A stretch of DNA of 35,718 nt from a virus (Duplodnaviria; Caudoviricetes): the IMG/VR virus record IMGVR_UViG_3300048578_000459, positions 1 to 35,718 of that record. One strand, written 5' to 3'. Below, piece by piece: positions 5,691 to 27,143 of this stretch (position 1 is the first letter of the stretch; each line of letters starts with the position of its first letter). Both the position numbers and the translations under genes were made by a program. The notes under the pieces are model-generated. The model did no database searches. It was not told the DNA's origin and worked only from the letters and a program-made list of their open reading frames with translations.

Positions 5691-5884
5691 GGCGCGACCG
5701 CCCGCTGTTCCTCGAAGAGCGCGTCGGCATCGCGCGCAAGATGATCAACGAAGACACGCTCCGCGTCTTCGGCAAGCTGACGGAGCGCCAGAGCGCATTC
5801 GTTTGGCGCCTCATCGGCGTGCTCGATGGCGACCGGCACGCGGTCCCGAGGAAGCACCGTCGCCTCGTGCGGAGGCCGCGATGA
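5687..5884 (+). CDS. hypothetical protein
   Basis: ATGA overlaps at both ends (MRRDRPLFLEERV...). Confidence 0.65.
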   Translation: MRRDRPLFLEERVGIARKMINEDTLRVFGKLTERQSAFVWRLIGVLDGDRHAVPRKHRRLVRRPR

Positions 5885-6456
5885 ACGCCGACATGTTCCC
5901 CGAGGCGAAGGTCGACCCCACCCTCGACAACGACCGCCGCTACACCACGCGCGACACGATGGACCTGTGCAAGCGCCTCGCTGGCGTCGACGGCTGGGAC
6001 CTCGACGTGGCGGCCGATGAGGAGAGCCATTGGGCGCCGCGGTTCTTCGACGTGAAGCGCGACGGGCTGGAGTGCTCATGGCTGCCCGACACGCCACCGC
6101 CGACCATGCGCGACGGCTCGCTGCCTCGCGGTGGCAATGGCAAGCGCTGGAACATCTGGTGCAACCCGCCCTACAGCGACATCGAGCCGTGGGTGGTGAA
6201 GGCGTGGGAGACCTCGACGCAGATCGACCCGCGCTTCGACTGGACGCTGGCGATGCTCCTCCCGTGCATCCGCACCGAGCAACCGTGGTGGCAAGAGCAC
6301 GTCGAGATCCACCGCGACGGCCGCGACCTGCCCGGCATGCTCGACACCCACTTCCTCCCCGGCCGCGTGAAGTTCGGCCACCCCGGCAACCGTGACGCCG
6401 TGGGCGTGGGCTCGCCTCCGTTCGGGTGCGTGCTGCTGGTGTGGAGGCGCGCTTGA
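5881..6456 (+). CDS. phage DNA N6-adenine methyltransferase (Dam-like family)
   Basis: RYTT...WDLDVAAD...DGL..W...IWCNPPYS..PWV.KA...MLLP..TE..WW..GRVKF..PPFG pattern. Confidence 0.88.
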   Translation: MNADMFPEAKVDPTLDNDRRYTTRDTMDLCKRLAGVDGWDLDVAADEESHWAPRFFDVKRDGLECSWLPDTPPPTMRDGSLPRGGNGKRWNIWCNPPYSDIEPWVVKAWETSTQIDPRFDWTLAMLLPCIRTEQPWWQEHVEIHRDGRDLPGMLDTHFLPGRVKFGHPGNRDAVGVGSPPFGCVLLVWRRA

Positions 6457-18094: not shown

Positions 18095-19902
18095 TGCGAG
18101 TCCCGGTGCTGAAGCAACAGAGCGTCGCCGCGCGGAACCCCTTCGGCGACACGTCGCCCAACCTCCAGCAGGCCAACCTCGGTACCGCCCAGGCTCTCGG
18201 CGCCGTCGCGCAGGACGTCGGCCAGCTCGGCCAGTCCATCGGCAACGTCATGGAGCAGCAGGCGCGCGAGGAGCGGCAGGCCAGCGCGAAGGCGCTGCAC
18301 GACGCCGAGGTCGCGAAGAGGCGCGCCGAGGAGCTGCAGGTCGCTGATGGACTGGTCGACCTCCAGCGGCGCGTCGGCGACGACGAGTCGAAGTTCCTCG
18401 GACGCAAGGGGCTCGATGCGGTGCGCGCCTCGGGCGGCACGCTCGACGCCTTCGACAAGTACGTCGAGGAGGGCGCGAAGCGGTACACGGACCCGACGCA
18501 GAAGCTTGAGTTCCAGGTGCGAGCGAAGCAGGCGCTCCTCGCTGCGCGTCGCTCGGTCGAGAGCCACACGACTCGCGAGTACGCTGCCGGCACCGCCACC
18601 ACCTTCGCGAACCTCCGCGACGCCGCGGTGCGGAATGCGGGCAGCGTCGACCTCTCGCCGGCTGAGATGGCCAGCGCGCTGGCGCCGGTGGATCAAGCCG
18701 CCGACGAGTTCTTCCCGGCCGAGCTGGCCAAGACCGCGAAGACGGAGCTGCGCGCCGACATGGCCGAGGCCGTCATCCAGCGGCATCTCGAGGCGGGCAA
18801 CATCGAGAAGGCCAAGGCCCAGCTCGAGGCGGATCGCAGCCTCTTCGCCCCCAAGCGCGCCACGCAGCTCGGCGCCGCCATCGACCGCGCCAACGCCGGC
18901 GCCGAGAAGGACCGCGTCGCCGGCGAGGTGGCCAAGCTGGTCGACACCTCGGCCGAGGCGGTGCGCACGCCCGACGGCTACGTCACCGAGGAGGCCCTGC
19001 GGAAGGCGGTGCCCGTCGAGGGCTACGAGGGCCAGCAGCGCGACCAGGTGGAGGCGGAGATTCGTCAGCGGCTGCAGCTCGAGCGCGCGAAGCTGAAGGC
19101 CGACGGTGACAAGCACCGCGACAACGTCAACCGCGCCGACCTGCAGGGCGTGCGGGCCGGCGAGAGCGAGGTGTGGCTGGAGAAGTACGACCCCGACTTC
19201 CTGCTGGCGCGGCAGGCGCGGAAGCGCGCTGAGTTCCGCGCGTGGAAGGCCTCGCAGGGCGATGCGAAGGGCAAGGCGGCAGAGGCGCGGCTGCAGAAGG
19301 CCGTCGATCAGGAGTTCCTCAACCGGCTCAACGCTGAGCTCATCAATGATCCGTCGACGAAACCCGACGACTTCCTCACCACCTTCATCGCCGAGAAGGC
19401 GAAGCAAGGCGACGACGTCATGGTGTCCGACGTCGCGCGTGCGCGCGCCGGCCTCGACGCCGCGAAGGCGGGGAAGCGCGCGGATAGCACCGAGGGGGCC
19501 ACCGAGCGCGCCGTGGCGAACCGCTTTGAGCGCACCCTCGGTGCGGCCTTCAAGCAGAAGGGCAAGCCCCTCGATCAGAAGCTGCTCAACGAGCGCGTCG
19601 GCCGTGCCCTCGGCCTGTATCGCGAGCGCCTCGATGCGAAGGGCAAGCCCCTCGATGAGGCCGAGCTCGCAGGTCTCGAGGCCGAGATGCTGCGCGAGGT
19701 CACCGTGTCGGAGCCCGGTCGCTTCTTGGGGACCAACGACGTGAAGAAGAAGGCGATCGACGCGCTCGTGACGGGGACCGAGCCCTCCAGGCCAATGCCC
19801 GCTGGGGGTGTCCGCCTCGATGCGCGGCCCACGGCCAGCGGCAAGAACGGCGAGCGGTACCGCCTCAGCGATGACGGAAAGTCGTGGGAGATCATCAAGT
19901 GA
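18091..19902 (+). CDS. internal virion (ejection) protein, T7 gp15-like position
   Basis: ~600-aa helical protein; MRVPV...V N-terminus and Gly-rich QALGAVAQDVGQLGQSIG; synteny. Confidence 0.65.
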   Translation: MMRVPVLKQQSVAARNPFGDTSPNLQQANLGTAQALGAVAQDVGQLGQSIGNVMEQQAREERQASAKALHDAEVAKRRAEELQVADGLVDLQRRVGDDESKFLGRKGLDAVRASGGTLDAFDKYVEEGAKRYTDPTQKLEFQVRAKQALLAARRSVESHTTREYAAGTATTFANLRDAAVRNAGSVDLSPAEMASALAPVDQAADEFFPAELAKTAKTELRADMAEAVIQRHLEAGNIEKAKAQLEADRSLFAPKRATQLGAAIDRANAGAEKDRVAGEVAKLVDTSAEAVRTPDGYVTEEALRKAVPVEGYEGQQRDQVEAEIRQRLQLERAKLKADGDKHRDNVNRADLQGVRAGESEVWLEKYDPDFLLARQARKRAEFRAWKASQGDAKGKAAEARLQKAVDQEFLNRLNAELINDPSTKPDDFLTTFIAEKAKQGDDVMVSDVARARAGLDAAKAGKRADSTEGATERAVANRFERTLGAAFKQKGKPLDQKLLNERVGRALGLYRERLDAKGKPLDEAELAGLEAEMLREVTVSEPGRFLGTNDVKKKAIDALVTGTEPSRPMPAGGVRLDARPTASGKNGERYRLSDDGKSWEIIK

Positions 19903-22900
19903 GCCTGCCTCCTCTGCCTGACGGTGCGACCCTCGACGCGCTGCCGCCTCTTCCCGAAGGCGCCACGTTGGATGCGCCGGAGAACACCGATCCCGCCTCC
20001 CGCGACGTGGCTCCATCGGTCACCGGTTTCACCGCCGAGGACGTGTCGGCCGATGTGCAGGCTGCCGATCGCACCGCGCGCCATACCCGCCTGCGCCTGG
20101 CCTTCGATGAGTCGCGGCGTACGAGCGAGGACGACGCCGCGACGACGCTGGCCGTGGCGAAGCAACTGGGCGTCCCTTTCGACAACGTGCGGAAGAACCT
20201 GCCCGCGTTCAAAGAGACGGCGGCCGCTGCCCAGTTCGATCCCGCGAGGTGGGAGCAGGAGAACCCCGAGCTCTCGAAGCTGGTGCTCTCGACCCCCGAG
20301 CTCGGCCCGCTGGTACTCCGATCGAAGGAGATCGGCCCCATTGTGCGCGCCTTCCGCGCCGCTGGCGACTGGACGAAGGACGCACTGCGAGCGGTCAACG
20401 AAGCGCTGACCGTTCCGGCCGACACGCTCGCTGAGCAGCAGGCGCAGATGCAGAGCTCAGACTTCGCGGCCGTCGATCCCTCGAAGCTCGAGCAGGCCAA
20501 CACCCCCCTCACTCCGGAGCAGGTGGCCGACGTCGAGCGGCAGCGCGCTCAGCGTGACGCTCCCAAGCTGGCCCAGGAGCGAGAGGACCCGAAGGCGCGC
20601 CTCGTGCGCGAGGACACCAGCTTCTCCGGCCGCCTTCTGCTCCTCGGGCTGCGAGCCGCCGAGACGAAGCAGTCGCTCGACCTCGCGCGCAAGCAGGTGC
20701 GGTTGATGTTGGCGGAGAACGGCATCGCCGGCGATCCCGCCGAACTCGCCGCCGAGCTCCATGACGCGAAGCTCGCCTCGACGCCTCGCTCGTACGGCGA
20801 CGACACCGGGTTGCTGCGCGATCTCACCGAAGGTCTGCAGGGCGCAGTTTCCACGGTCGACGTCGGCGCCGACGCCCTCAAGGGTGCTGGTGTCGCAGGC
20901 GCGGTTGGTTTCGTCGCGACTGCGGTACCGACCGCGGTGGTGACGAAGAACCCCGGAGCGGCCGTCAGGGCCGGCGTCGCTGGTGCTCGCGCCCTCGCAG
21001 GCAAGGGCGCACAGACCGCTGCTTTCCTTTCGGCGATGGAGCTCGAGACGGGGACCTCCTACGAGGCGCTGCGCGAGCTCACCACCGATGCGGGGCAGAA
21101 GCTCACCCCGGGTGAGGCGATGGGCGGAGCGGTCGTGCAGGGGCTCATCAAGGGCGGCCTCGAGTTCGTCAGCTTCGGCCAGCAGACGAAGGTGCTGAAG
21201 CAGGCGCTGCCGTCACAGATCACCGGTCTCATCACGAAGGACCCGACCTTCCGCGCGCTGCTGCGTCGCGTGGCGACCGAGTACGGGAAGAGCGTCGCGA
21301 CCGAGGGCATCACCGAGGGGCTGCAGGACGCGGTCGAGCAGATCGGTGACTTCGTCCAGGCGAGCATGAAGGACGAGGCCTTGCAGAAGCAGGCCTACGA
21401 CCCGACGCGCGGCCTCGAGGCCACACAGGGCGGCGTGCTGGGTGCGCTGCTCTCCGGCGGCGTCACCTCCGGTTTGGCCCTGGCCACGACGCGCACGACG
21501 GACGCGCGCACCGAGGTGGCTGATCAGCAGGTGGCGCCGCTGCTCGAGCTCGCGCAGCAGCCGACGGTGAAGGCGGCGCCGGAGGCCTTCGCGCAGCTCA
21601 TCGCCGAGACCTCGGCCGAGGGAGGCCACGCACCGCTCACGGCGCTGCACGTCGACGCGCACGCCGTCGTGAAGTACTTCCAGGAGCAGGGCTTCGACGG
21701 GCAGGCAACCAACGCCGCTGTCGCCGAGCTGCTCGGCCCCGACGCACCGGCGAAGCTCCTCGATGCGGCGGCCACCGGCGGCAAGCTCGAGGTGCCCGTC
21801 GAGGCCGTGCTGTCGAAGTGGGGCACCAGCGAGGCAGGGAAGGCCCTCGTCGACGACACCACCACCGATCCGTCGGCCCTCACTCCGCGCCAGCGTGCCG
21901 AGCAGAAGGCGGAGATCGAGGCGCGCGCCGAGGCCATCGCGAAGGAGGAGGAAGCGAAGGCGTCCGAGGCCGAACTGCTCGCCAACCGCACGCGTGAGCT
22001 CGAGCAGCAGCTGATCGATGCAGGGCAGTCGAAACAGGCGGCCAAGGCCAGCGCCGCCCTGGTGCGCGCGTTCTCGGCGACGATGGCGGCCGACTTCAAC
22101 CAGGCGCTCTCCGCCGTCTTCCCCGAGGCCCCTCTCGCTGTCGCCAAGGGCGACGAGCAGGCCGTCGGTGATGCGGCTCTCGCTCAGCTTCCGACCGACG
22201 CGCTGCAGGCTCGCGCAGAGACGATCGATGTTCCGACGCGTGCGGCCGAGCTCTTCACGGACACCGTCTCAGGGCTGCGCACCCGCCGCGCCTGGGACGA
22301 GTCTCCACGGCGGCCGGGCACGCAGGTCGCCGTCATCACGTCGCCCGACATCAAGGCGCTCAACGATCATCCAACCGGCGGCCACGACACCGCGAACGAG
22401 CTCCTGCGCCTCATCGGCGGCGTGCTGGGCGGCGTCGACGCCGAGGCCGCTCGCTCGGGCACGAACTTCCTGCTGCACGCGAAGAATCGCGAGGAACTGC
22501 GCGCGGCCGTCAACGCGGTGCGCGCGGCACTCCCCGCGGGACTGACCGTCGAGGGTGCGGTCGCGCCCGACATCGATGCCGCGTTCGCGAAGCTCGACAG
22601 CACCACCGCCGAGAAGCGGGCGGCTGGGAAGCTGCCGGGCCGCGGGGCAACGGCCTTCGACCTCTCGCAGCTCGGGCCCGAGACCTTCTCCGCGGGGAAG
22701 CCGGCGACGCCGAACGTGAGCCAAGCGCTGCTCGAGCGCGCGGCGCGCACGCAGGGGAAGGACTTCGCGCGCGAGGCCTACTTCGACAAGGACGTGCCGG
22801 GGGTGCTGTCGAAGACGGGCTTCGACGCCCTCGGCGAGCGCGCGTGGGTGTCCGCCTTCGACCTCAAGGGTCTGAAGCGGATCAACGACGTCTTCGGCAA

Positions 22901-25900
22901 GCTCGCGGGCAATGCCATCCTCAAGGCCTTCGGCGAGGCGGCGGCGCGCGCAGGCGGCGGCGACATCGCATTTGCCCACCTGAGCGGAGACGAGTACGCC
23001 GCGAAGCACGACGACCGCGCGAAGCTCGCGGAATTCGAGACCCGCCTCCGGGCTGAGTTGCAGAAGGTCGGCGTCTCGGTGATGTTCGGGGGGGCGCAGT
23101 TCGAGCTCACCCCGGACTTCCGCTCGGGGATCGGAGAGAAGACCTATGGCCGAGCCGACCAAGACCTCAACGCCCGCAAGCGAGCAGAAGCCGCCGCGCC
23201 GAATGACGTTCAGCGAGTTCGCGGACCTGATGGAGCAGCACCCGGAGACCAAGGCGGAGCCGCTCGCGGTGACGGTGGACGGCAAGCCGGCTTGGACGGC
23301 GCCCAAGAAGTAGCCCGCCTCAAGCAGGACACCGGCGCCACCCCGAAGGGCTACACCGAGCTGCCCGCCGGCCGCGCCCTGCAGTCAACCATCAAGGTCT
23401 TCCTCAACAAGAGTGCCGACGTCAGCACGGTGGTGCACGAGGCTGGGCACGCCTTCCTCGAGCAGCTCTTCGACCTCGCCGAGCGCCCCGACGCTCCCCA
23501 ACGCACGAAGGACACCGCGGCCGCGGCGCTCAAAGCGCTCGGTGTCGAGACCCGCGCCGAGGTGAAGCGCGAGCACCACGAAAAGTTCGCTCGCTCCTTC
23601 GAGAAGTACGTCTTCACCGGCGAGGCCCCCAGCTCTGGCCTGAAGCAGGTCTTCGCGCGCTTCACCCGCTGGCTCAGCGCCATCTACCGCACGCTGACCG
23701 GCATCCCCGGCGCCGAGCTCAGCGCCGAGCTGAAGCCCGTCTTCGACGCGATGCTGGCGACCGAAGATCAGATCGCCGCCCTGCGCCGCAAGCAAGGGCC
23801 CCAGCTCACCGCCGAGCAGCTGCAGGTGAAGGCCGAGGAGCGCCAGGCGCAGCTCGAGCAGGAGGCCGACGAGTACCGCGAGGGCAGCCACGCCGCGCAG
23901 CTCGCCGCCGTGAAGGACGCCCTGCGCGCCCGCGAGGCATGGTGGAAGAAGGGGCTGCAGCAGCTCGAGGCGAACTTCGCCGACGAGTACGAGCAGCTGC
24001 CCGCTCGACGTGCGCAGCGGCTGATCAGCGGCGAGGAGACGGGCGAGGCGATGGTGCTCGACCGAAAGCTGGTGCAGGAGGTGATCGGCGAGCTGAAGGT
24101 GCCGGGCCTGAAGACGGCAGAGACCGGCGGGGTCCGCCCGTCGCTGGTGGCGGAGATGGCCGGCTACGCCTCGCCTCGCGCCATGCTGGCCGAGCTCGCG
24201 GGCCTCCGGTCCAAGGAGACGTGGGTGCGCGCCCAGGCCGAGGCGACGATGCGGCAGCTCCACCCGGGCATCCTCGACGACCTCACGAAGTTCCGGGCTC
24301 TCCTCTCCGACGGGCTGCGCAGCGCCACCGAGAAACGCCTCATGCGCGAAGTGCAGGGGCTCGACAGGGAGGCGCTCAAGCGTGCGGCCGAGAAGCTGGT
24401 CGAGCGACGCGTCGTGGGCAAGCTGCAGCCGGGCAGGGCGCTGGCGCAGCAGCGCGCGGCGGCCGCGGCGAAGGCCCGCGCCATGGCGAAGGGCGACATC
24501 AACGCCACCCGCGAAGCGGCGCAGGCTGAGCTGCTCAACCACTACCTGCACCACGAGCTCACCGCGGCCGCGGCGGAAGTGGGCAAGGTCGAGGATCTGG
24601 CGAAGCGGCTCGGCAAGACCTCCGCGCGCGAGCGCCTGGGCAAGGCTTCACCGGCGTACCGCGATGCGGTCGACTTCCTGCGCGGCGCCCTCGGGTTCAG
24701 CGACCCGATCGACCTCGACGCAGGCACCCTCGAAGCGGCCGTCGCGCAGCTCGAGGGAGACGCCGTCACCATCGGCGATCCCGACTGGCTGGCCCCGCTG
24801 CGCGCCGCGCTCAGCAAGACGCAGGACTACCGGCAGCTCACCGTGGCCGAACTCGGCGCCGTGCGCGACGCGCTGAAGATGATCGAGACCGGCGCGCGGA
24901 ACCGCACCGAGATGTTGGTCGACGGAAGGAGGGCTGACTTCGAGGATGTGAAGGCGAAGGCGCTCAAGGAGATCGCCTCGACGCTCCCCGACAAGGGGCG
25001 GATCGTCGCGAAGAACCAGCGGACCGCCACCGAGAAGGTAAAGGCGAAGCTCTCGGCACTCGACGGCTTCTTGCTCACGCCGATCGACTTGGTGCGCGAC
25101 CTCACCGGAGACGACCAGCAGTCGACGCTCTTCAAGGTGGTGGTGAACACCATGCGGCGCAGCGCGGCGCTCGAGGCCGACTTGCTCGAGCAGCGCATCA
25201 AGCCCGTCCTCGACGTCTTCGAGAAGATGAGCCCGGAAGCCCGGAAGAGCCTCGGCGATCTCGTCGATGGGCGCGCGCTCTTTCCAACGTGGAACAGCGA
25301 TCTCGAGGCGCCTCGGCACGTCGACGAACTGCTCTCGCTCGCGCTGAACTTCGGCAGCGAGTCGAGCCGGAAGGTGGTGCTCGAGGGGTTCGGCATCACC
25401 GAAGACCAGGTGAAGGCAGCTCTCGATGCCCATCTGAAGCCCGAGCACATCGAGCTCATCAACGCGGTGTGGAAGACGCTCGATGCCTTGCGCGAGCCGG
25501 CCTTCGACCTCGAGGAGCGCGAGACCGGGCTACGCCCGAAGGCGGTCGAAGCTGTGCCCCTGCAGCTGAAGGCGGGCATGCTCGAAGGCGGGTACTTCCC
25601 GCTCAAGGCCAACCCTGAGGCGTCCACCGTCGGAGCGCGGCAGTTCGGCGAGGAGCAGCTCGCGTCGCTCTTCGACCCGACCTTCACCCGCCCGGGCACC
25701 GCACACGGCCACCTCAAGAGCCGCAAGGACGGCGCGCGCTACGCTGTGTCCCTTGATCTTGACGTCTTCCGAAAGCACCTGCTGCAGGTCGGCCACGATC
25801 TCGCATACCGCGAGGGAGTGAAGTCGGTCGCGCGCCTCGTGATGGACGGCGACATACAGCGCGAGCTCACGCGCAAGCTGGGCGCGGAGAAGACGAAGGA

Positions 25901-27143
25901 GTTCCTGTTCTGGCTGAAGGACATCGGCGGCGCGTCAGGGCTGCAGTCGACCCCCGCCGACTCGCTGCTGTCCTTCTTCAAGAAGAACCTCTCGACCTCG
26001 GCGCTGAGCGGCCTGAGCACCGCGGTCGGCAACTTCGCCAACCTCCCGGCCGCCGTCGCCTCAACACCCCTCAAGGCGAAGCACCTCGCCGCCGGCATCG
26101 CCCAGGTGATGGCCGCGCCGTGGGACATGGTGCATGGCACCTCGACCGCTCGGCAGGCGATGCTTGAGAAGAGCGGGGTGATGCGCTCCGAGAACAGCGA
26201 ACTGGTGCAGCAACTCCAGCGCGACATCGTGGGGCTGCGCGCCGGCGCCGTGCGCCGAGGCCTCGAGAAGATGCGCGAGGTCGGGATGATCGCCATGCGC
26301 GGAGTCGACGCCATCGTGTCGACCGCGGTGTGGACCGGCGCGTACCGCCAGGCGCTCGCCGAGGGACGTTCCGAGGCTGAGGCGGTGCGCTGGGCCGACG
26401 ACATCCACTCGAAGGTTCAGCCGTCGAAGAACGTCGCTGAGAAGAGCCGCATCCTCCGAGACAAGGGAACGTGGGTGGGCGCCGCGACCATCTTCTACAG
26501 CTACCTGAACGTCGCCTACCGAGCGCAGCACCGGCTCGCAGCGCCGCTCTTCACGCAGGCGTTCCGCGGCGCGTCGGTGACGAAGAAGGCCACCGTCGCC
26601 GCGGCTGTCGCCGGCAACCTGCTCGCGTTCTACGTCGCGGTGCAGGTGCTCGGTGACCTTGGCATGGGGCGCGGGCCCGAGGACGGGGACCGCGACGAAG
26701 AGGACCCGGAGAACAAGCTCCTGAAGTGGCGGAACTGGCTTGTGCGGAAGGTAGCGGTTGCTCCGCTCAGCACCATCCCCGTTCTGCCGCTCACGTCGAT
26801 CGTCGAAGGGGGCGTCCTCGGCAAGAAGGTGTCGCCGCGCGCCGAGCCCGTTACCGCCACGCTCTACCAGTTCTCGAAGTTGGTCGAACAACTGCGCCGC
26901 GACGAGGCAACGGAAGAGGACATCGCCAAGGCGGCGTGGCCGCTCGTCGGCGCCTTCACCGGTCTTCCAACGCGCCTGGTAGGCACAACGGGCAAGTACA
27001 TCTGGGAAACGACTGCAGGCGACCGCGAGGTACCCAACGCCGGACGCTTCGTAGGCGGCGTGATCTACGGCGAGAAGGACGGCCAGCCCGACAACCTACC
27101 GGCCGTTCTGGGCGACGGCCTCGACCCGCTCAAGGTCGAGTAG
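19899..27143 (+). CDS. giant internal virion/ejection protein (polyvalent-type) with tandem GGDEF-like domains and a zincin-like HExxH domain
   Basis: GTG start overlapping upstream stop (GTGA); ~2414 aa; hydrophobic Gly/Ala-rich segments; GGDEF-like motifs at 22248-23190; HEAGH at 23436-23450; GGYFPL motif in the C-terminal part. Confidence 0.85.
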   Translation: MSLPPLPDGATLDALPPLPEGATLDAPENTDPASRDVAPSVTGFTAEDVSADVQAADRTARHTRLRLAFDESRRTSEDDAATTLAVAKQLGVPFDNVRKNLPAFKETAAAAQFDPARWEQENPELSKLVLSTPELGPLVLRSKEIGPIVRAFRAAGDWTKDALRAVNEALTVPADTLAEQQAQMQSSDFAAVDPSKLEQANTPLTPEQVADVERQRAQRDAPKLAQEREDPKARLVREDTSFSGRLLLLGLRAAETKQSLDLARKQVRLMLAENGIAGDPAELAAELHDAKLASTPRSYGDDTGLLRDLTEGLQGAVSTVDVGADALKGAGVAGAVGFVATAVPTAVVTKNPGAAVRAGVAGARALAGKGAQTAAFLSAMELETGTSYEALRELTTDAGQKLTPGEAMGGAVVQGLIKGGLEFVSFGQQTKVLKQALPSQITGLITKDPTFRALLRRVATEYGKSVATEGITEGLQDAVEQIGDFVQASMKDEALQKQAYDPTRGLEATQGGVLGALLSGGVTSGLALATTRTTDARTEVADQQVAPLLELAQQPTVKAAPEAFAQLIAETSAEGGHAPLTALHVDAHAVVKYFQEQGFDGQATNAAVAELLGPDAPAKLLDAAATGGKLEVPVEAVLSKWGTSEAGKALVDDTTTDPSALTPRQRAEQKAEIEARAEAIAKEEEAKASEAELLANRTRELEQQLIDAGQSKQAAKASAALVRAFSATMAADFNQALSAVFPEAPLAVAKGDEQAVGDAALAQLPTDALQARAETIDVPTRAAELFTDTVSGLRTRRAWDESPRRPGTQVAVITSPDIKALNDHPTGGHDTANELLRLIGGVLGGVDAEAARSGTNFLLHAKNREELRAAVNAVRAALPAGLTVEGAVAPDIDAAFAKLDSTTAEKRAAGKLPGRGATAFDLSQLGPETFSAGKPATPNVSQALLERAARTQGKDFAREAYFDKDVPGVLSKTGFDALGERAWVSAFDLKGLKRINDVFGKLAGNAILKAFGEAAARAGGGDIAFAHLSGDEYAAKHDDRAKLAEFETRLRAELQKVGVSVMFGGAQFELTPDFRSGIGEKTYGRADQDLNARKRAEAAAPNDVQRVRGPDGAAPGDQGGAARGDGGRQAGLDGAQEVARLKQDTGATPKGYTELPAGRALQSTIKVFLNKSADVSTVVHEAGHAFLEQLFDLAERPDAPQRTKDTAAAALKALGVETRAEVKREHHEKFARSFEKYVFTGEAPSSGLKQVFARFTRWLSAIYRTLTGIPGAELSAELKPVFDAMLATEDQIAALRRKQGPQLTAEQLQVKAEERQAQLEQEADEYREGSHAAQLAAVKDALRAREAWWKKGLQQLEANFADEYEQLPARRAQRLISGEETGEAMVLDRKLVQEVIGELKVPGLKTAETGGVRPSLVAEMAGYASPRAMLAELAGLRSKETWVRAQAEATMRQLHPGILDDLTKFRALLSDGLRSATEKRLMREVQGLDREALKRAAEKLVERRVVGKLQPGRALAQQRAAAAAKARAMAKGDINATREAAQAELLNHYLHHELTAAAAEVGKVEDLAKRLGKTSARERLGKASPAYRDAVDFLRGALGFSDPIDLDAGTLEAAVAQLEGDAVTIGDPDWLAPLRAALSKTQDYRQLTVAELGAVRDALKMIETGARNRTEMLVDGRRADFEDVKAKALKEIASTLPDKGRIVAKNQRTATEKVKAKLSALDGFLLTPIDLVRDLTGDDQQSTLFKVVVNTMRRSAALEADLLEQRIKPVLDVFEKMSPEARKSLGDLVDGRALFPTWNSDLEAPRHVDELLSLALNFGSESSRKVVLEGFGITEDQVKAALDAHLKPEHIELINAVWKTLDALREPAFDLEERETGLRPKAVEAVPLQLKAGMLEGGYFPLKANPEASTVGARQFGEEQLASLFDPTFTRPGTAHGHLKSRKDGARYAVSLDLDVFRKHLLQVGHDLAYREGVKSVARLVMDGDIQRELTRKLGAEKTKEFLFWLKDIGGASGLQSTPADSLLSFFKKNLSTSALSGLSTAVGNFANLPAAVASTPLKAKHLAAGIAQVMAAPWDMVHGTSTARQAMLEKSGVMRSENSELVQQLQRDIVGLRAGAVRRGLEKMREVGMIAMRGVDAIVSTAVWTGAYRQALAEGRSEAEAVRWADDIHSKVQPSKNVAEKSRILRDKGTWVGAATIFYSYLNVAYRAQHRLAAPLFTQAFRGASVTKKATVAAAVAGNLLAFYVAVQVLGDLGMGRGPEDGDRDEEDPENKLLKWRNWLVRKVAVAPLSTIPVLPLTSIVEGGVLGKKVSPRAEPVTATLYQFSKLVEQLRRDEATEEDIAKAAWPLVGAFTGLPTRLVGTTGKYIWETTAGDREVPNAGRFVGGVIYGEKDGQPDNLPAVLGDGLDPLKVE
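23146..23313 (+). CDS. nested +1-frame small protein (55 aa) inside the giant virion gene
   Basis: GGAGA at 23133-23137, 8 nt before ATG; MAEPTKTSTPASEQKPPRRMTFSEFADLMEQHPETKAEPLAVTVDGKPAWTAPKK*; 51/55 codons end in G/C while the host frame becomes A/T-ending. Confidence 0.7.
   Translation: MAEPTKTSTPASEQKPPRRMTFSEFADLMEQHPETKAEPLAVTVDGKPAWTAPKK

Follow-up and report, generated by a model that had tools for sequence, protein, structure and literature searches.

A gene nested in a giant virion-protein gene

The window analysed here is the whole of virus record IMGVR_UViG_3300048578_000459 (35,718 nt, 70% GC), which derives from an uncultured podophage. The last gene of its internal-virion block (19899–27143, + strand) encodes a giant polyvalent, ejection-type protein, most likely starting at GTG 19899 (2414 aa, protein P0001). 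Behind a tandem pair of GGDEF domains, in the +1 frame of this giant gene and on the same strand, lies a nested open reading frame (ORF) of 55 codons (23146–23313). Judged from its sequence and those of its relatives, this ORF is nearly certain to be a real gene.

The nested ATG is taken from the main-frame codons TAT-GGC, and the TAG (23311–23313) from GAA-GTA-GCC. A Shine–Dalgarno (SD)-like GGAGAG (23133–23138, + strand), made by the main-frame codons Gly(GGA)-Glu(GAG), is comparable in strength to that of the capsid gene (−6.6 versus −6.1 kcal/mol), and the spacer between GGAGA (23133–23137) and the ATG is 8 nt. A further ATG lies at 23203; it has no SD (−0.7 versus −6.6 kcal/mol) and was discarded for that reason as a candidate for the main start. 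The ORF starts in the final helix of the second GGDEF domain (TYGRADQDLNARK) and stops before an HExxH peptidase domain; this placement, like the ribosome-binding site, spacer, start and stop, had been claimed by a first-pass annotation of the same letters, and the coordinates bear it out. The 55-aa product, which contains the peptide MTFSEFADLMEQHPETK, has no Cys and no hydrophobic signal and looks soluble.

The codon counts of that annotation were reproduced as well: 51 of the 55 nested codons, and 35 of the last 36, end in G or C, and 21 of the 37 main-frame codons over 23202–23312 end in A or T. The bias resides mainly in the last 36 codons; the first 19 overlap the GGDEF helix. Gene-wide, the frequency of A or T at third codon positions is 0.117. 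Nowhere else in the gene does third-position G/C (GC3) dip as deeply as here, and the drop has P = 5 × 10−11, or about 10−7 over 2400 windows. Additionally, the nested start overlaps a Tyr codon written TAT, whereas TAC is used for all 25 Tyr residues that lie outside the GGDEF-end region.

Taken by themselves, some properties of the window would fit composition noise, with no gene at all in this G/R-rich linker of a 70% GC genome, and weigh against a nested gene. Long stop-free +1 runs are common, the length of this one being ordinary (15 of 50 such runs in the giant gene reach at least 55 codons), and the +1 GC3 alone is within chance after scanning (P = 1.5 × 10−4 per window, about 0.36 over 2400 windows). 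Two of the three strain differences within the ORF (23255 and 23282) favour the main frame, being silent there and altering the nested protein; a strain variant at 23313 (G>A) retains the nested stop.

Start signals across tandem-GGDEF relatives

A protein search with the GGDEF module gave 61 homologues. DNA was assembled for 23 distinct tandem-GGDEF loci (window included), to which 8 held-out loci and 2 found by a peptidase search were added. Three loci were excluded as duplicates or near-duplicates (L028, L031 and L021, of L006, L018 and L020, respectively), others because they lie on the same contigs as earlier loci (L100–L112, L114–L119 and L127), and L019 (single GGDEF, 54% GC) was left out of the codon statistics.

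A biased, open +1 frame lies behind the GGDEF pair in all 33 tandem-GGDEF loci, and 32 of them have an ATG; L130 has the biased frame but no ATG within the range scanned, and in L015 the frame extends past the end of its contig. The first 23 loci all have an ATG, with a +1 GC3 of 0.81–0.96 over a main-frame GC3 of 0.34–0.54. The GGDEF modules that bear the conserved ORF are only 29–50% identical.

Several lines of evidence indicate that the start signals themselves are selected. First, of the 21 loci that have the overlapped Tyr, 20 encode it by TAT, compared with 37 of the 759 Tyr codons elsewhere in these genes. Second, in 16/16 loci where it could be located, the Gly that contributes to the SD is encoded by GGR, compared with 1066/3872 elsewhere. 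Third, an SD of −5.5 kcal/mol or stronger precedes 19 of 23 nested starts and only 72 of 227 other +1 ATGs. Fourth, where the Tyr has been lost, the start is rebuilt from other codons in a stretch of some 20 nt of this helix: the ATG is supplied by GAT-G or CAT-G in L113, L120, L122, L123, L125, L015 and L016, and by an upstream TAT-G in L014. The three first-set loci without TAT-G at the site have an ATG 18 nt upstream, with a weak SD. All eight later-found held-out loci fit the pattern, five of them making the ATG through GAT-G or CAT-G. As the loci are related, P values for such counts are descriptive and overstate independence, a point that weighs against reading them at face value; that the start was rebuilt independently is the stronger argument.

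On these codon choices, the ATG and SD are under synonymous-site selection. For constraint over the remainder of the overlap, which the first-pass annotation had proposed as a check, the comparisons point both ways. Against L004, third-position substitutions are suppressed in the overlap (7/5/3 over the three codon positions, versus 34/27/111 in GGDEF); against L005 the core lacks such suppression (7/6/12), which, like the two strain differences, counts against constraint. The annotation's expectation that the ORF and its ribosome-binding site would be conserved in homologues held, as did, for the start signals and the open frame, its claim of selection on the nested frame.

The skewed TAT and GGR codons, the turnover of the start and the recurrence of the same switch in every tandem-GGDEF locus already contradict composition noise, which we consider almost certainly wrong. 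The ORF has the marks of an overprinted gene: selection acts on a start codon and a ribosome-binding site of its own, and the frame stays open and codon-biased across divergent relatives. With its out-of-frame conservation and its start-codon turnover, the gene is well supported as an instance of overprinting in tailed phages.

A half-degenerate GGDEF pair in a polyvalent protein

The two GGDEF domains preceding the nested start differ in what they retain. GGDEF-1 (22230–22700, + strand) is degenerate: RSGTNF replaces RxGGDEF and Thr/Ser replaces the first metal Asp, so that both metal ligands are lost, while the invariant K42, N45 and H52 (numbered from 22230) are kept. GGDEF-2 (22776–23180, + strand) looks catalytic, with D211, N219 and HLSGDEY, and matches Pfam PF00990 at 25.4 bits (cut-off 23.8). 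We take the catalytic roles of these residues to be those of their counterparts in PleD. D211, G253, D254 and E255 of GGDEF-2 are kept in 30/30 aligned loci, SGDE is present in 59 of the 61 homologues, and the half-degenerate tandem arrangement (RSGTNF plus HLSGDEY) is conserved in the 61 homologues. A prophage-like copy, L126 (G159), carries a partial duplication of GGDEF-1.

AlphaFold2 modelled the pair as two ferredoxin-like, GGDEF-like repeats (pLDDT 94.6), and Foldseek matched it to diguanylate cyclase GGDEF domains, GTP cyclohydrolase III and Csm1 (high rmsd). In its logic, the tandem pair comes closer to the Palm1/Palm2 pair of Cas10. A search with the pair against 50,697 GenBank phages gave no match. 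Like canonical and Hypr GGDEF dinucleotide cyclases, as these are described in PMC6456294, the pair has the fold and, in GGDEF-2, the metal and base residues. Those enzymes are homodimers with a half-site per domain, in which each domain binds one nucleotide and the Glu of one domain deprotonates the 3′-OH bound in the other (PMC6456294); here, by contrast, two domains share one chain and GGDEF-1 has neither metal ligands nor general base.

The diguanylate cyclase motif is thus found in GGDEF-2 (D211 plus SGDEY) and not in GGDEF-1, leaving by sequence one complete half-site per chain rather than the two used for cyclic di-GMP (c-di-GMP). The pair therefore looks like a single-active-site pseudo-dimer, and pairing of two GGDEF-2 domains in trans is an alternative that we still allow for. 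With one working direction and no need of dimerization, the pair is predicted to be constitutively on, and its product may be a linear, cyclic or non-canonical dinucleotide made at one active site. The label 'cyclase' in the first-pass annotation proved too specific, because GGDEF-1 lacks both metal ligands.

The giant protein combines this pair with an LPD22-like N terminus (a weak match, E = 4 × 10−4, below the cut-off), a zincin-like HExxH metallopeptidase domain (23340–23768, + strand; HEAGH at 23436–23450) and a phrog_9880 backbone matched along its whole length; GGDEF was also matched. Iyer et al. 2017 (PMC5512222) describe giant late-region proteins with LPD22, GGDEF and a zincin-like HExxH peptidase, proposed to be delivered with the virion and to make nucleotide signals. 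The protein here has the same design, a large late-region protein that joins an LPD, a peptidase and an unrelated enzyme domain and is placed after the internal virion genes. The main-text passages of that study describe neither a tandem half-degenerate pair nor a nested gene. A motif D-[TAV]-S-F-[DE], possibly a processing site, stands at module junctions of the giant proteins P0014, P0017, P0022, P0035, L013 and L030 and in the region of residue 238 in the window.

A divergent family of small nested proteins

The nested proteins of the first set are 53–126 aa long. Their N terminus is Ser/Thr/Pro-rich, as dictated by the GGDEF helix, and their family motif is a helix [ST]-h-E-E...P, usually followed by a hairpin h-x-h-x-G-x-x-h-W and then a further helix. 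The folded core of the window's copy (23188–23310, + strand) consists of a helix (about 23209–23238) and a β-hairpin (about 23266–23298), read over a main frame that forms a G/R/D-rich linker; AlphaFold2 modelled the 41-residue core as helix plus hairpin with pLDDT 91.1 and pTM 0.60. In the homologues, the pooled post-GGDEF main-frame segments are rich in G and R and poor in K, L and aromatics, as expected of text that is read out of frame.

When 1.84 billion proteins were searched with a profile of the family, 13 matched, 12 of them small (58–121 aa). Of 10 matches looked up, 9 came from contigs shorter than 2 kb and none was informatively named, an origin that fits gene callers detecting the nested gene only where the giant ORF is broken. 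The locus of a close family member on a 45-kb contig, P0063, was not found among viral contigs. The nested protein had no Pfam, PHROG or PDB match, no Foldseek match at E = 0.001 or better, and only matches under 0.9 in the ESM Atlas. One protein family fills the nested site in most loci. Weighing against a uniform family are its great divergence (mean column identity 16% in alignment A7) and the window's own copy, which lacks the C-terminal helix.

Two readings of the nested frame can be judged on this evidence. The +1 frame begins in the last GGDEF helix and ends at a module boundary, as would be expected if a programmed frameshift cut the giant protein short behind GGDEF-2, or if the frame were a translation-control element with an irrelevant peptide. 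Against this reading stand the independently selected ATG and SD, the helix–hairpin motif common to the family and, in the window, the lack of an in-frame restart codon near the nested stop; we regard it as improbable. A sponge for the enzyme's nucleotide product, protecting the producing cell without binding the enzyme, would share its timing logic with an inhibitor of the enzyme, and small phage proteins that sequester signalling nucleotides reportedly exist. The absence of similarity to Pfam, PHROG or PDB entries speaks against a sponge, and the variable 36-residue core, with none of its residues invariant, is more in keeping with a co-evolving protein surface than with a fixed ligand pocket; we consider a sponge improbable.

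Exchange of the cassette and nested genes behind other modules

The nested gene moves with the GGDEF module. Compared with the window, P0055–P0057 are 62–83% identical over the peptidase and the next C-terminal block and 31–46% over the GGDEF pair and linker, whereas P0004 and P0005 are 62–66% identical over GGDEF-2 and linker and 81–89% over GGDEF-1 and the downstream blocks. Similarity to the backbone starts again directly 3′ of the nested stop. In L005/P0005 the nested stop and the peptidase are separated by an inserted GNAT-like domain (PF13508), which confirms that insertions occur at this junction. On these identity profiles, the cassette is exchanged between phage backbones, with its right edge at the nested stop. 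Such a small gene, closely linked 3′ of an enzyme module and moving with it, has the arrangement of a type II toxin–antitoxin or effector–immunity pair.

The first-pass annotation had also predicted that the ORF would be absent where the GGDEF insert is absent. Among 80 loci picked by the peptidase, 26 were left out (GC3 < 0.72 or short upstream sequence), leaving 54 high-GC relatives, 4 with GGDEF and 50 without. Three of the four GGDEF-bearing relatives pass the nested-ORF threshold (one being the L005 contig); in the fourth, the +1 ORF falls short of that threshold. Of the GGDEF-free relatives, 39 have no nested ORF, as predicted, and 11 have unrelated ones, several directly 3′ of DUF7178-type, P-loop-like or peptidase modules (names not taken from a Pfam match were assigned by eye). 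The proposed enzyme-plus-small-gene cassette thus stands as a real, selected gene tied to the GGDEF module, and does not stand as something restricted to GGDEF.

These other nested genes recur behind unlike modules. Unrelated +1 ORFs begin at the end of a DUF7178-type module (Pfam E = 6 × 10−23 to 3 × 10−3) in L011 (10109–10324), L012 (7358–7561), L133, L155, L175 and L193, and similar-looking modules precede nested ORFs in L149, L169, L176 and L186. Further nested +1 ORFs, at L157:4489, L138:3658, L193:5476 and L177:4621, follow a P-loop-like module, HExxH peptidases and an unassigned module. The nested-gene system is therefore wider than GGDEF and extends, through unrelated genes, to further modules of these giant proteins. 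The nested peptides of L155 (3472 onward) and L197 (2962 onward) share F-P-x-x-x-x-[YF]-x-E-A-x-G-[YF]-W-Q in giant genes that otherwise differ, and are another nested family.

Some loci carry two nested genes. In L013 (6587–6865) and L016 (6530–6760) a second +1 gene, with GTG start, an SD of −7.2 and −6.3 kcal/mol, respectively, and a hydrophobic, membrane-type product, comes right after the first; the two genes are a hidden operon inside the giant gene. In L096 (3741–3986) a second +1 gene (81 aa, ATG, SD −5.9 kcal/mol) lies about 35 main-frame codons past the first. The linker hence also takes passengers, a point against tying every nested gene to the enzyme before it. The nested gene itself might be such a passenger in a free, disordered linker, with the main-frame GIGEKTYG giving a ready SD and ATG and the product serving an unrelated job such as superinfection exclusion or host takeover. 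Besides the second nested ORFs, two of them hydrophobic, very low sequence conservation favours a passenger, as do three single-GGDEF giant proteins (L034, L037 and L039) that have an intact SGDEF and no comparable nested ORF. These are among 11 single-HLSGDEF giant proteins judged by eye, of which 6 have a similar nested ORF, 1 is doubtful, 3 have none and 1 could not be judged. In this single-GGDEF group, moreover, the nested helix shares its DNA with a conserved main-frame RGxxPxG[VL] motif, which may force part of the helix conservation. A passenger would not explain why the start is rebuilt from different codons over a range of about 20 nt in the same helix, why a single protein family occupies the site in most loci or why most GGDEF-free relatives lack a nested ORF, and we consider it rather unlikely. 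In four cellular cyclases, the corresponding +1 frame is interrupted by stops.

A main-frame pattern, R-G-x-x-P-Q-[GA]-[FY], recurs after GGDEF-2 in the linkers of P0010–P0054, within or outside the nested ORF, and not in the window, L004 or L005. It is a loose pattern, present in 34 of the 61 homologues without a measured chance rate, and resembles the tail after GGDEF-1.

Genome context and host

The window is organized like the genome of a short-tailed phage, with genes in the order terminases, portal, protease, GP7 capsid, Bbp16, tail, internal virion proteins, the giant gene and tail fibre. No integrase was evident among the window ORFs scanned; the genome may not be complete, and a role in lysogen immunity is conceivable. 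A scan of 21900–23600 for sigma-70 promoter-like sites found 0 with 0 expected and is uninformative at this GC content. Two DNA methyltransferase genes (1927–2832 and 5803–6456, N6/N4 and Dam-like) lie 5′ of the terminase.

Relatives sit in genomes titled Archangium, Myxococcaceae, Archangiaceae and Myxococcales (Myxococcota). They are present in 11 of 368 genomes of that myxobacterial class, and three lie hundreds of kb inside long contigs and are likely prophages. From these genomes we infer that the host is probably a myxobacterium.

A candidate inhibitor of the GGDEF enzyme

What might the nested protein do? The reading that we favour, and to which we give about an even chance, is that of the first-pass annotation: the product would be a cognate inhibitor of the upstream tandem GGDEF enzyme. 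It is a reading from anatomy, and it leads because the nested gene shares its mRNA with a mass-produced enzyme and because of its position, its co-exchange with the module, its high variability and the recurrence of nested ORFs behind unlike enzyme modules. Those behind DUF7178-type, P-loop-like and peptidase modules are as a rule of effector plus partner predicts.

In the proposed mechanism, internal initiation on the late mRNA would yield the 55-aa protein in the cell that makes the 2414-aa virion protein, and simultaneously with it. The tethered GGDEF domains would leave the enzyme on without dimerization control, GGDEF-1 holding the acceptor nucleotide and GGDEF-2 giving metals and base, to make a linear or cyclic dinucleotide. 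The helix–hairpin peptide would bind and silence the GGDEF module in the producing cell and then be left behind, or stripped off at packaging or ejection, so that the enzyme would work only in the newly infected myxobacterium. Nesting would keep the immunity gene beside an effector located in the middle of a polyprotein.

The Rpn genes-within-genes RpnL/RpnS (PMC10327210) offer a precedent for intragenic antitoxins: there, too, a small, highly variable protein arises from an internal start inside an enzyme gene, and RpnS blocks its enzyme. RpnS, however, is in frame, being the toxin's own C terminus, and the system is bacterial and anti-phage (PMC10327210), whereas the gene described here is read in a shifted frame and lies within a phage virion gene, at a mid-protein position, and its inhibitory role is a proposal. 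With a +1 frame and a GGDEF enzyme in place of an in-frame start and a PD-(D/E)XK nuclease, we do not class it with the Rpn intragenic antitoxins.

A positive partner, whether an activator, a folding or packaging chaperone or a co-ejected subunit, in the manner of Rz1 with Rz or Cas11d with Cas10d, would fit the linkage, co-expression and co-transfer data equally well. Embedded +1 genes of phages do encode working partners: in lambda Rz/Rz1, as presented in PMC6139136, a gene wholly embedded in the +1 frame and missed by gene callers makes the partner of its host gene's product. Rz1 is an outer-membrane lipoprotein needed for lysis (PMC6139136), unlike the soluble-looking peptide here, which has no lipobox Cys or hydrophobic signal and whose host gene encodes an ejection-type polyprotein and not a spanin; membership of the embedded spanins was rejected on these grounds. 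The YIP peptides of PB1-like phages are likewise small phage peptides that bind a diguanylate cyclase, the host's YfiN, and, in the account of PMC8085984, they raise rather than lower c-di-GMP. This favours a positive partner and counts against an inhibitor; nothing suggests sequence kinship between YIP and the nested protein, a comparison made without alignment. Against a positive partner, the tethered pseudo-dimer has a confident stand-alone fold and no obvious need of a helper, an obligatory activator could instead be fused in frame, and several unlike enzyme-type modules each have their own unrelated nested gene. We consider a positive partner unlikely.

Embedded +1 genes, intragenic antitoxins and GGDEF domains in polyvalent proteins are already known separately. 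In the open-access literature, including the main text of Iyer et al. 2017, we found no description of a GGDEF-polyvalent protein combined with a nested gene. A broader version of the inhibitor proposal, which we hold only tentatively, is that giant ejection polyproteins may be strings of effector–immunity cassettes, with the antidote to each harmful module hidden in the +1 frame of the next linker; the GGDEF pseudo-dimer would make a non-canonical signal in the newly infected myxobacterium, and the nested peptides would be the first inhibitor family dedicated to such enzymes.

If the nested product is indeed an inhibitor, it would explain how phages can make virion-loaded enzymes in bulk and yet spare the producing cell, filling a gap in the polyvalent-protein model. 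The presence of a nested gene would then mark which modules of a giant protein are harmful. It would also add a class of genes missed by annotation and provide natural peptide inhibitors of GGDEF-fold enzymes.

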